Below, in pieces: positions 39,946 to 62,201 of a stretch of 64,000 nt of DNA. Each line of letters starts with the position of its first letter. Position 1 is the stretch's first letter. The notes under the pieces are model-generated. The model searched no databases and was not told the origin of the DNA. It was given only the letters and a program-made list of their open reading frames with translations. The position numbers and the translations under genes are program-made. The DNA comes from Escherichia phage vB_EcoM_11B_SA_NWU, in sequence record OR062527. One strand, written 5' to 3'.

Positions 39946-40188
39946 TCAAATAGACTTTTTCACAATTTTCCAATCAGCTTTAAACTGTTCAACGTCAGAA
40001 TGATAAATCCAGAATCCTGCGCTTTCTCCATCCTCATAAAGAGGGCATCCATCACATTCATCTTCCCATCCCATATCACGTAAAAGATGTTCAGCTTTTT
40101 CAACAAGTTCAGAATCTTTACCAATGATATTAAAATACCATTTACCTCTAACTTCTGAATCTTTGATGCTCTGGCGTTGTAATCTCAT
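39946..40188 (-). CDS. Hypothetical protein (frd.3 position)
   Basis: 80-aa ORF with promoter upstream. Confidence 0.5.
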   Translation of the reverse strand: MRLQRQSIKDSEVRGKWYFNIIGKDSELVEKAEHLLRDMGWEDECDGCPLYEDGESAGFWIYHSDVEQFKADWKIVKKSI

Positions 40189-40204
40189 TTTATTCTCCTT
40201 AGTT

Positions 40205-40245
40205 GATAGGGTAATAGTATCACACTACTACCCTTCTGTAAACTA
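40205..40245 (-). promoter_or_regulatory. Early promoter GTTTACA-17-TACTAT with conserved downstream motif
   Basis: Reverse complement gtttacagaagggtagtagtgtgatactattaccctatcaact. Confidence 0.5.
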
Positions 40246-40629
40246 CTTTTTGAAAGTTTTTCGCAAAAGTTCAATGATTTCATCTACATTGTTTTCGTCA
40301 ACAATGCAGTGAATTTTTGTTACGCCAGAAATCTTGTCTTCGACTTCATCTTCTTCAGAAGTCGGTTCTTTATACTCACGAAAACAATAAAACTCTTCTT
40401 CACTAAGTTCAAAATAATCATCACCCATACCATCATCATTATAGATTTCGCCATTAGCACAAATGATTTCGGTTACATAATCACAGCCATCTAATCTTGA
40501 TATTGATTTAACTTCAAACCAACCACCATTTTCTTGAATGATGCCGACCATATTAGAATTTGATGAACTAATATCAATAAAAGATTTAATACGATGTGGA
40601 TTTAACTCATATTTTTTGCCGATTTCCAT
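40243..40629 (-). CDS. Hypothetical acidic protein (start at internal Met with SD gaggaaaa)
   Basis: 128 aa; Asp/Glu-rich. Confidence 0.5.
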   Translation of the reverse strand: MEIGKKYELNPHRIKSFIDISSSNSNMVGIIQENGGWFEVKSISRLDGCDYVTEIICANGEIYNDDGMGDDYFELSEEEFYCFREYKEPTSEEDEVEDKISGVTKIHCIVDENNVDEIIELLRKTFKK

Positions 40630-40674
40630 TTTGATTTTCCTCATTTTAATAGGGGCTATCAAGCCCCTTGATAA

Positions 40675-40905
40675 TTATTGTTCAATCAGTCCCATATAAA
40701 ATTCTGCGTCTTCAGAATCCATGCCGTCACAATATTCATTAGCCATAAAGCGGGTGAGGTCTTCAAGAGGACCTTCAATGACAATAGAAAAATTGCAATA
40801 ATTGGGATCATCATGAATACTTGTGATACTAAGTTCAGGATAACGATTACGAACAATTTCTTCAATGTATTCAAAATCAACGATGTCAATATCAACTTTA
40901 GCCAT
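40675..40905 (-). CDS. Hypothetical acidic protein immediately downstream of gene 32 (start at internal Met MAKVDID)
   Basis: 76 aa; SD agaggaaaa; followed by hairpin aggggct-atca-agcccct. Confidence 0.5.
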
Positions 40906-40918
40906 ATCATTTTCCTCT

Positions 40919-41851
40919 TTAATTATCAGCAATATTGCCGATAGTTGTATAGTACCATGGAAGAACAGGGAGGTCCGTGTCATCAGCACTAGATGAACTG
41001 CCAGAGCTTGAGCTCATAAAATCATCTTCAGTTTTTGTATTGAAGTCATCAACATTGAATGCATCCAAATCATCAGCAACTTTATCAGCTTTCTTAGCGG
41101 CAGTCGCTGCGGCACCACCCATAGCAGCAGTTCCCATAACTTGACTGAACTTAGTGCTCAGTTCTTCAAACGATTTGAATTTATCTTTAGAAGTCATTTC
41201 AGAAAGGTCAACCATTTGTTCGAACAGTTCTTTCTGGAAAGATTCATCATCAATGTTTGGAATCGCAGATTGATTCAGGAATTTAGATTCGTCGTAGTTA
41301 CTAAAACCAGAAACTTGTTTAACTTTCAGTACAAAGTTAGCACCTTCCCACGGACAAGTTACATCAACTGGAGTTTCACCCATTTCAACATCAACTGCAA
41401 TCATTGCATTGATTTTATCCCAGATTTTCTTACCGAAGCGGTATTTAAATACTTTACCTTCATTTTCTGGAGCAGCTGGGTCTTTTACTACAAGAATGTT
41501 AGCCCAGTAAGAAGTTTTACGTTTAACAAGACCGTACTCTTTATTGTCAGTATTGTACAAATCATTTTTACTGATGTACTGACATACTGGACAAGAATCG
41601 TAATCACCGTGAGTAGATGAACATGTTTCAATATACCATTTACCATTTTTCTTGAAACCGTGATTTACAAGAATTGCGAATGGTGCTTGTTCATCATTTT
41701 TAGACGGAAGAAAACGAATTACTGCTTGACCGTTACCCGCATTATCGAGTTTCAGTTTCCACTCGCCTTTATCTTCAGAAGAAAAACCTTTATTGCCATT
41801 CAGTTTAGCCATTTGTGCAGCAAGTTCAGCAGTAGATTTACGTTTAAACAT
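40919..41851 (-). CDS. 32: ssDNA-binding protein gp32 with variant C-terminal tail
   Basis: 310 aa; matches T4 gp32 through ..[10 protein letters not shown], then ends [16 protein letters not shown]. Confidence 0.9.
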
Positions 41852-41904: not shown

Positions 41905-42534
41905 TCATAGCTGGCATAATTTACAATACTCTGGGTCTTCGAGAGGTATCCAACCTGAGTTGAAATACTTTACCATCGATTTAGCAGTTGTATCGGTTAT
42001 ATTTATATTACCTTTAACTCTTCGCCATCCAGGAGTTTTACCATACAGATTAGAAGATAATAACACATAATTCTCGTAAGCAATATGAGATAATTTCCAA
42101 GACTCTATATTAGCTCGTGATGTTTTCCAAGGTCTGAAATCGTCACGGTTCATATAATTAGCCAATCTCATATGCTCTCTAACTTCCGGGTCTTTAGCTG
42201 GATGAGTTTCACCACTCACACCAAATCCACCGCCAGCATATACCAGATTAAAATAGTCTGGATTATCTCTGGCATTTACTTCAAGTTGGTATTTTCGCTC
42301 TGCTTCAATAACATTCAAGTCATCATCAATTTGAATTATTTTAACGTTCGGTTTTTGAAGCATTACCGCATTCAAAAATCTTTTTTGTTTACATGAGCTC
42401 CAGTATTCCTTTCCGGAAGAGTCATATATTATTCCGTTCTCAAATGAGCAATTTAATTTACTACCGATATAGTAGTATGGCGGAGTCTTATTTTTGACAC
42501 GGTCTTCAAATGTAAACCAATATACTATATTCAT
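41905..42534 (-). CDS. GIY-YIG homing-type endonuclease (Seg-like, position of T4 segG/32.1)
   Basis: 209 aa; IVYWFTF..(11)..YYIGSK and ERKYQLEVN resemble the GIY-YIG catalytic core. Confidence 0.65.
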   Translation of the reverse strand: MNIVYWFTFEDRVKNKTPPYYYIGSKLNCSFENGIIYDSSGKEYWSSCKQKRFLNAVMLQKPNVKIIQIDDDLNVIEAERKYQLEVNARDNPDYFNLVYAGGGFGVSGETHPAKDPEVREHMRLANYMNRDDFRPWKTSRANIESWKLSHIAYENYVLLSSNLYGKTPGWRRVKGNINITDTTAKSMVKYFNSGWIPLEDPEYCKLCQL

Positions 42535-58094: not shown

Positions 58095-58135
58095 GATAGT
58101 TGTATAGTACCACAGTATGCTTTGGTTGTAAACCG
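58095..58135 (-). promoter_or_regulatory. Early promoter GTTTACA-17-TGgTACTAT upstream of motA
   Basis: Reverse complement gtttacaaccaaagcatactgtggtactatacaactatcaact. Confidence 0.55.
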
Positions 58136-58159
58136 TTTTGTGAAAAAAAAAAATTTTAA

Positions 58160-61899: not shown

Positions 61900-62201
61900 T
61901 AATCCACTAAAAGATCGACGATTGCATCACGAAGACATTTATTCGCAATACGTTTAAGAGCAATTTCAGTTTCAGGCGCATTTCGAATAATCATTGAATT
62001 CAATTCAGCTTCGGCAAACTGAAGTTCTTTAACTAATTCAGCTTTATATTTTCCTTGACCTTTCTTAGCTTTTGCTCGTTTTAATTCAGCTGTAGTAAAC
62101 ATTTTGTTCTCCAAATCCGTATCAGTTGATAGTTGTATAGTACCACAGTCCTTGTGGTATGTAAACCATTTTGTGAAAATTTTTAAATGGAAAGATACCA
62201 T
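61896..62201 (-). CDS. Hypothetical protein (ndd.x cluster)
   Basis: 101-aa ORF. Confidence 0.5.
   Translation of the reverse strand: MVSFHLKIFTKWFTYHKDCGTIQLSTDTDLENKMFTTAELKRAKAKKGQGKYKAELVKELQFAEAELNSMIIRNAPETEIALKRIANKCLRDAIVDLLVDY
62128..62168 (-). promoter_or_regulatory. Early promoter GTTTACA-17-TGgTACTAT
   Basis: Reverse complement gtttacataccacaaggactgtggtactatacaactatcaact. Confidence 0.55.

Follow-up and report, generated by a model that had tools for sequence, protein, structure and literature searches.

The gene 32 product of phage T4 (gp32) is the textbook phage SSB, a protein that binds DNA in single-stranded form (ssDNA), and its acidic C-terminus is usually viewed as a generic disordered tail. 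Small lesions of this tail have been described in the T4 mutant strain deltaPR201, whose gp32 lacks residues 292-296, and in the engineered protein gp32(1-295), which show a Kss (ssDNA affinity) of about 3x the wild-type value, a Kds (double-stranded DNA affinity) of 1.5-2x and a ka (association) of about 4-6x (PMC5892887), and which in these respects fall between the wild type and the fully C-truncated form *I (PMC5892887). Within the C-domain, residues 248-270 form the helix that binds Dda, and residues beyond about 270 are invisible in the gp32-Dda-ssDNA structure (PMC11551737). Here, we describe an altered gp32 tail at the boundary between gene 32 and frd.3 in Escherichia phage vB_EcoM_11B_SA_NWU (sequence record OR062527), of which a stretch of 64,000 nucleotides, referred to throughout as the window, was analyzed. 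Sequence comparison indicates an allele of a T4-like phage (genus Tequatrovirus) that arose by deletion of 105 bp, a reading to which we assign a probability of roughly 0.9.

Set against the wild-type T4 32-frd.3 region, the window retains gp32 residues 1-294, the 5' leader, the protein core, the helix at 248-270, the gene order frd.3-frd.2-frd.1-frd and the upstream segG gene. It does not have residues 295-301 with the stop codon that follows them, the terminator, and, from the frd.3 promoter, the -35 box and upstream region; 16 non-native residues stand in their stead. DeltaPR201 and gp32(1-295) likewise combine a small lesion at the extreme acidic C-terminus with an otherwise intact C-domain; they differ in that only coding sequence is affected while terminator and promoter are untouched, deltaPR201 keeping the LLNDL end and gp32(1-295) gaining no residues, whereas the window allele adds a 16-mer and would also rewire transcription. 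The gp32-A or *I form (residues 1-253/254) shares the C-terminal loss that lowers self-inhibition, but it loses the whole partner-binding domain, of which residues 254-294, with the Dda helix, are still present in the window protein.

At the DNA level, the T4/PST early promoter follows the consensus TTTACW-N17-TAYWAT (PMC4122927), and the PeSL cassettes of T4-like phages (terminator plus early promoter) mark rearrangement-prone sites (PMC2839356, PMC4122927). The DNA deleted from and remaining in the window together make up a typical unit of this kind, composed of a stem-loop, an early promoter and a Shine-Dalgarno sequence (Arbiol 2010; Comeau 2014; PMC2839356, PMC4122927). PeSL events, however, are exchanges between two PeSLs, while in the window one endpoint lies inside the coding sequence of a core gene and there is no repeat; the remnant is also devoid of the -35 box and upstream stem-loop by which a T4-type early promoter or PeSL is recognized.

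Alignment of the Gene 32-frd.3 Boundary

The window shares about 95-96% identity with many phages of Escherichia, Shigella and Yersinia, and its alignments to fPS-65, F25, T4, KIT06 and EP01 each contain a single clean 105-bp gap in the window, with identical flanks. At the junction (40972|40971, GGACC|TCCCTG), codon 294 (CTC, Leu), which straddles the breakpoint, is joined to the base that directly follows the -35 hexamer of the frd.3 promoter. In the missing DNA, TGGATGACCTTTTGAATGACCTTTAA covers what is left of codon 294 together with codons 295-301 (DDLLNDL) and the stop codon; the missing DNA also includes the intrinsic terminator of gene 32 (GGGGACC...GGTCCCC and then a T-run), which in an RNA fold of the missing segment forms an 8-bp GC stem followed by U7; and it ends with the A/T-rich upstream region and -35 box ...TTTTCACAAAACTGTTTACA (GTTTACA) of the frd.3 early promoter. 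The fPS-65 record annotates the terminator and the frd.3 early promoter in exactly the DNA that is missing from, or left in, the window. On the 3' side of the junction, the resident frd.3 promoter continues with its 17-nt spacer, extended -10 box TGGTACTAT and leader; every base there has its counterpart in the frd.3 promoter and genes resident in the relatives, and the net difference is -105 bp. No relocated copy of the tail, the terminator hairpin or the terminal motif was found anywhere else in the window. The features of the region are collected in Table 1.

What is left of the promoter (Table 1) comprises the 17-nt spacer TCCCTGTTCTTCCATGG (40955-40971), the TG of the extended -10 element (40956-40957) and the -10 hexamer TACTAT (40949-40954), followed by the GAGG and ATG of frd.3; neither the -35 box GTTTACA nor the A/T-rich region upstream of it is present. 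The -35 position is occupied by CGGACC from gene 32 coding DNA, with three of six consensus matches. Creation of a new -35 box by the fusion was considered and rejected, given that CGGACC, at the correct spacing, has no more than these three matches and that the better match, ATGACA, lies 23 nt from the -10 box and is too distant.

The initial annotation had seen in this tail DNA a promoter-like repeat and had read it as a promoter-bearing cassette recombined into the 3' end of gene 32. The repeat itself is real: the 18-nt -10/downstream block TGGTACTATACAACTATC (the reverse complement of gatagttgtatagtacca, as first noted) is present in three perfect copies, each on the minus strand of the window (40940-40957, 58095-58112 and 62128-62145), where about 0.05 would be expected by chance. 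The copies at 58095, which is the motA promoter, and at 62128 stand within complete T4-type early promoters (TTTTCACAAAAnnGTTTACA, a 17-nt spacer and TGGTACTAT), and the site near 40205 is a diverged yet complete early promoter. The tail is non-native and encoded by early-promoter DNA, as had been proposed, but nothing was inserted: relative to T-even genomes the gene 32 3' end of the window holds no extra DNA and is 105 bp shorter, and the supposed incoming functional promoter turns out to be a truncated resident remnant without a -35 box.

Arrival of a mobile cassette, with or without the two small acidic genes downstream, would fit the exact copy of a repeated early-promoter block in the tail DNA, as well as the role of PeSLs as known recombination substrates in T4-like phages (PMC2839356, PMC4122927) and the occurrence of identical promoters, spacer included, at different loci. 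An example of the last is the motA early promoter of the window (58095-58148, minus strand), which over 54 nt, including the normally variable 14-nt spacer, is identical to the frd.3 promoter of KIT06 and EP01, which suggests that early promoters at separate loci have exchanged sequence ectopically. At the gene 32 boundary itself, however, T4, F25, fPS-65, KIT06 and about 480 further T-even records have the -10 box, the leader, frd.3 and frd.2 at the same place, no DNA of the window is missing from its relatives there, and a promoter without -35 box and stem-loop would be an incomplete cassette. The alignments to T-even genomes led us to reject cassette insertion, which we regard as extremely unlikely.

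Table 1. Features at and around the gene 32-frd.3 boundary of the window.
Feature	Position	Strand	Description and basis
Gene 32 open reading frame (ORF)	40919..41851	minus	310 aa
Gene 32 native part, codons 1-294	40970..41851	minus	ORF list, Pfam, T-even alignments
Deletion junction ...ACGGACC / TCCCTG...	40971..40972	minus	Alignments; 1 nt microhomology
Neo-tail, codons 295-310 (16 aa)	40922..40969	minus	Translated former frd.3 promoter DNA (spacer, -10 box) and 5' leader
New gene 32 stop codon TAA	40919..40921	minus	Abuts frd.3 Shine-Dalgarno TAAAGAGG, 13 nt upstream of frd.3 ATG
frd.3 early promoter remnant	40949..40971	minus	Alignment with promoters at 58095 and 62128 and with fPS-65 annotation
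18-nt -10/downstream block TGGTACTATACAACTATC, exact copy	40940..40957	minus	Motif count in window
frd.3	40675..40905	minus	76 aa, isoelectric point (pI) 4.05, net charge -15; Phage_FRD3 PF05798, E = 1.3e-37, 128.5 bits (cut-off 28.1)
GC-rich hairpin GGGGCT-TGAT-AGCCCC, no U-tract	40652..40667	minus	RNA fold; not called in terminator scan
frd.2	40243..40629	minus	128 aa, pI 4.37, net charge -16; FRD2 PF03197, E = 2.1e-38, 131.3 bits (cut-off 29)
Intact early promoter upstream of frd.1, TTTACA-17-TACTAT with TG	40214..40242	minus	Promoter scan and alignment
frd.1	39946..40188	minus	
segG, homing-endonuclease gene between genes 59 and 32	41905..42534	minus	98% identical to T4 SegG

The C-Terminus of gp32

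The gp32 of the window matches that of T4 through Leu294 and then continues with 16 non-native residues to its C-terminus, in keeping with the altered end that had been noted for this 310-aa ORF; the T4 protein has 301 residues and ends ...ADDTDLDDLLNDL, as first stated. The Zn-containing OB-fold core is present (gp32 PF08804, E = 4.4e-66, residues 39-239) and is predicted at high confidence by AlphaFold2, and so is the N-terminal basic motif KRKST, described as the cooperativity motif of gp32 (PMC5892887). Residues 248-270, which make up the amphipathic Dda-binding helix, are identical to the T4 peptide crystallized with Dda, and AlphaFold2 places a helix at 245-267. The neo-tail is hydrophobic and aromatic, and the DNA that encodes it is non-coding in fPS-65, F25 and T4. 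In the AlphaFold2 model, residues 268-310 of the window protein are disordered, with all predicted local distance difference test (pLDDT) values below 50 (about 35), and the terminal helix is absent. The wild-type model, built from a 66-sequence alignment, has a short helix at 293-301 at a modest pLDDT of about 57, compared with about 30 in the linker, and carries no information on a docking site. No entry in the PDB resolves the extreme C-terminal region of gp32. The proposal that the acidic partner-recruiting domain is altered accordingly holds for its extreme end, where the most conserved motif is replaced, but not for the Dda site at 248-270, the only partner site defined by a structure, which is intact.

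The weight of this replacement emerges from a census of gp32 cluster representatives of 280-320 aa with 58-99% identity to the window protein, in which all 114 end in the motif L-D-(D/E)-L-L-(N/A)-(G/D)-L. On average, the motif with its preceding residue (6 aa) has a pairwise identity of 77%, as opposed to 28% for the 20 residues before. Only the first Leu of the motif (L294) is kept in the window, and the remainder is replaced. The same census bears on the possibility that the short tail is ancestral and that the DDLLNDL tail and terminator were inserted in T4 and its relatives, for which the presence of the short form in several phages speaks, and nothing further. Since the terminal pattern L-D-(D/E)-L-L-x-x-L recurs throughout the representatives, which reach down to 58% identity and stem from many host genera, while the short form is found in only 9 of about 495 T-even records, the ancestral short-tail layout was rejected, and we give it next to no credence. 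A PVLPWYY-type tail is by the same count not the common state of T-even gp32 proteins.

Distribution Among T-Even Phages

A 131-nt query spanning both flanks retrieved 495 phage records at >=80% coverage, while the missing 104-nt segment retrieved 482 at the same coverage, leaving a shortfall of about 13 records, 9 of which carry exactly this deletion. These 9 records come from 7 phages and make up about 2% of the roughly 495 T-even records. A 40-nt query across the junction of the window matched only Shigella phage SP21535 and Escherichia phage EO1, which are independently isolated, plaque-forming phages; this speaks for the viability of carriers, as does a sister junction in five more phages, described below. 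Both share the junction and reading frame of the window and differ from it in spacer single nucleotide polymorphisms (SNPs); EO1, whose gp32 (WDS52270.1, 310 aa) is annotated as an SSB, has a divergent frd.2, and SP21535, with a gp32 of 311 aa, is without segG and has a different frd.3 allele. In the SP21535 record, gene 32 is unannotated despite an intact 311-aa ORF with neo-tail (L001:1657-2592).

A second class of junction came to light through a protein search that returned a 392-aa "SSB" with both gp32 and Frd.3 Pfam domains, and which led to phages phiC600P9, GEP001, CrRp10, vB_Eco-B1.1 and TB004. In the first four, gp32 and Frd.3 form an in-frame 392-aa fusion (L006:2501-3679; L007, L008 and L009:1637-2815) that results from a 106-bp version of the deletion, the one-base difference from 105 bp shifting the frame such that gp32 runs on into Frd.3; the internal Shine-Dalgarno sequence and ATG of frd.3 are kept. 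TB004 (gp32 of 311 aa) has lost 105 bp like the window. All five share with the window the left endpoint, a right endpoint at or 1 nt past the end of the -35 hexamer, and the loss of tail, terminator and -35 box, but differ from it in their promoter spacer. The CrRp10 fusion protein serves as a UniRef cluster representative. In several GenBank records (for example Kelasse, JLBYU22, IsaacDaniel, HZ_ZJUN4 and Phaginator), Frd.3 is labeled "ssDNA binding protein", a label that was probably propagated from the long gp32::Frd.3 fusion.

In exact-protein look-ups, the gp32 of the window itself was not on record, and the EO1, TB004 and CrRp10 variants were each found on one contig only. Junction searches of IMG/VR and JGI metagenomes gave no matches, but IMG/VR holds only one wild-type contig and thus has no power in this respect; a hypothetical query with the junction on a T4-type spacer found no carrier. 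The allele is already present in GenBank, in EO1 and SP21535, and no paper was found on the allele, the gp32 terminal motif or the gp32::Frd.3 fusions.

The spread of the junction over several records also bears on an assembly or consensus artifact, such as a deletion inherited from a reference. Identical, homology-free endpoints reported across laboratories have the pattern of a propagated reference gap, and the missing gene 32 annotation in SP21535 could be taken in the same sense. Yet four flanking haplotypes and two unrelated spacers carry the junction, which comes in 105-bp and 106-bp versions and in differing contexts (segG present or absent, frd.2 and frd.3 alleles that differ); the isolates were obtained in China, France, Poland, Malaysia and elsewhere; and a reference of the second class could not have yielded the spacer of the first from mapped reads. 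We consider an artifact very unlikely.

Deletion Endpoints and Their Possible Recurrence

The carriers fall on two spacer backgrounds: type A, with spacer TCCCTGTTCTTCCA, comprises the window, EO1 and SP21535, and type B, with ACCAAAGCATACTG, is represented by TB004. Intact relatives of the second class, KIT06 and EP01, have ACCAAAGCATACTG in place of TCCCTGTTCTTCCA, and the two cannot be aligned. In TB004 the junction reads GGACC|ACCAAAGC, with the same 105 bp gone, from after ...ACGGACC to after ...GTTTACA; in GEP001, CrRp10 and B1.1 it reads GGACC|CCAAAGC, corresponding to 106 bp removed, and in phiC600P9 GGACC|TCAAAGC. The three type-A carriers differ from one another in spacer SNPs, and each of their haplotypes is also found in intact phages (13 intact records for the SP21535 spacer).

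Microhomology at the breakpoints amounts to 1 nt for type A and 0 nt for type B, and there is no direct repeat of several nucleotides. The stop codon could have been removed through any of 4180 possible breakpoint pairs, and some of those not used have up to 6 nt of homology; microhomology-driven slippage is thus not supported. Pairing of the breakpoints through a hairpin or other secondary structure is likewise not supported, as ssDNA folding does not bring the endpoints together.

A single origin, with later exchange up to the heterology boundary, could account for the SNP differences among type-A spacers; two unalignable spacers do not appear to be explained in this way, and we conclude with moderate confidence, from the sequences compared, that at least two independent deletion events took place at the same nucleotides. 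This raises the possibility that the deletion is a recurrent, site-specific and illegitimate event, possibly selected, as opposed to one old allele spread by recombination; such a hot spot would extend the deletion reading and not compete with it, and we judge the odds of it to be about even. In its favor are the identical endpoints on TCCCTGTTCTTCCA and ACCAAAGCATACTG, each of which also occurs in intact phages, the near absence of microhomology among so many possible pairs, and the fraction of the flank/segment shortfall that is accounted for by exactly this deletion. The failure of ssDNA folding to unite the endpoints counts against it, as do the restriction of known carriers to seven GenBank phages, the single-origin explanation available for the three type-A haplotypes, and a contrived but possible single-origin route to type B through repair synthesis and then end joining. 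Candidate mechanisms are an illegitimate joining reaction mediated by topoisomerase II, or cleavage of intermediates that had stalled at the border of the conserved promoter block; both are speculation.

Neighboring Genes

The minus-strand order segG, gene 32, frd.3, frd.2, frd.1 (Table 1) agrees with T4 in its frd.3-frd.2-frd.1 succession, and the products of gene 32, frd.3, frd.2 and frd.1 match the Pfam families gp32, Phage_FRD3, FRD2 and DUF5417. The two small ORFs below gene 32 had been described as strongly acidic and as each having its own Shine-Dalgarno sequence, and both points are correct: the predicted products are acidic (Table 1), and GAGG precedes both, at 40914-40917 in the case of frd.3. 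They are not cassette cargo but the ancestral frd.3 and frd.2 genes in their usual places. In T4, frd.2 is a non-essential early gene whose product has a predicted LSm-like fold (PMC12152347).

Directly 3' of frd.3 lies the GC-rich hairpin at 40652..40667, of which the stem is kept while the loop and flanks vary between phages. It would be the first structured 3' element met by read-through gene 32 transcripts and may act as an RNA 3' stabilizer or processing site.

Upstream of gene 32, segG encodes a SegG protein in which Pfam found no match at E <= 0.001. The gene is present in EO1 and absent from SP21535 and all type-B deletion carriers, and its presence does not correlate with the deletion. 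The SegG cleavage site lies near the 5' part of gene 32. An involvement of SegG in the deletion was set aside, given this location and the absence of segG from most carriers.

A second deletion was observed at window position 40203|40202, where 84 bp are missing from the stretch that separates the frd.1 early promoter from the Shine-Dalgarno sequence of this gene. It removes an unannotated 22-codon hydrophobic mini-ORF (MFAPYIMAAVMLVCLYLLIKAC) found in T4, F25 and fPS-65 and, in contrast to the 105-bp event, has a clear direct repeat (CTAA.GGAGAA) on its flanks.

Expected Consequences for gp32 and Transcription

On the deletion allele, the reading frame of gene 32 continues through the promoter spacer, the -10 box and the frd.3 leader, adding 16 unrelated residues before it stops at the TAA by the frd.3 Shine-Dalgarno sequence. 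The resulting gp32 is expected to retain the ssDNA-binding core, the cooperativity motif and the Dda helix (248-270) but to lose the terminal L-D-D-L-L-x-x-L helix. It would then resemble gp32(1-295) and the deltaPR201 protein, with partial relief of self-inhibition by the C-domain and an ssDNA affinity of about 3x, and would lose whichever partner reads the terminal motif.

With the terminator gone, gene 32 transcripts are predicted to read into frd.3 and frd.2. A terminator scan of the minus strand found no terminator-like site until well downstream of gene 32, and the hairpin behind frd.3 is without a U-tract, so that, given the loss of the terminator, gene 32 transcripts should enter both genes. 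Conversely, frd.3 and frd.2 would be deprived of their normal early transcription, be left with at most a weak extended -10 promoter, and come to depend on transcription of gene 32. Because the stop codon directly adjoins the Shine-Dalgarno sequence of frd.3 and precedes its ATG by 13 nt, translation of frd.3 may in addition become coupled to that of the very heavily translated gene 32. Since the early promoter upstream of frd.1 is intact, only frd.3 and frd.2 lose an early promoter of their own, and frd.1 and frd should keep theirs. The non-essential nature of frd.2 in T4 implies that altered timing of its expression should be tolerated.

Several considerations weigh against the deletion reading and the consequences that we attach to it. 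An assembly error in the window itself keeps a small formal probability; every functional consequence is a prediction; the 16-residue neo-tail might have an effect for which a clean 1-295 truncation is no model; and the extended -10 element TGn-TACTAT could keep more promoter activity than is assumed here.

Implications for T-Even Phages

Phage SSBs trigger defense systems, among them AbpAB, which responds to ssDNA-bound T4 gp32 (PMC10732053). Such sensing is a conceivable setting for selection on the allele, but the literature on escape from such defenses yielded nothing that implicates the C-terminal motif of gp32 in sensing. A broader scenario, which on present evidence appears rather unlikely, would bring the observations together: a homology-independent, nucleotide-precise deletion hot spot would have fired at least twice, loss of the LDDLLxxL motif would be tolerated or even favored, for example through a retuning of self-inhibition or through evasion of SSB-sensing defense, and the fusions would point to a functional link between Frd.3 and gp32.

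Homology-free, identical endpoints on unrelated promoter backgrounds constitute a small unsolved puzzle in T4 illegitimate recombination. The terminal eight residues of gp32 follow a pattern that is invariant across 114 diverse representatives, while the linker ahead of them drifts freely, and the deletion carriers are natural mutants with which the role of this motif may be addressed, be it in the binding of a partner, in self-inhibition or in recognition by host defense.

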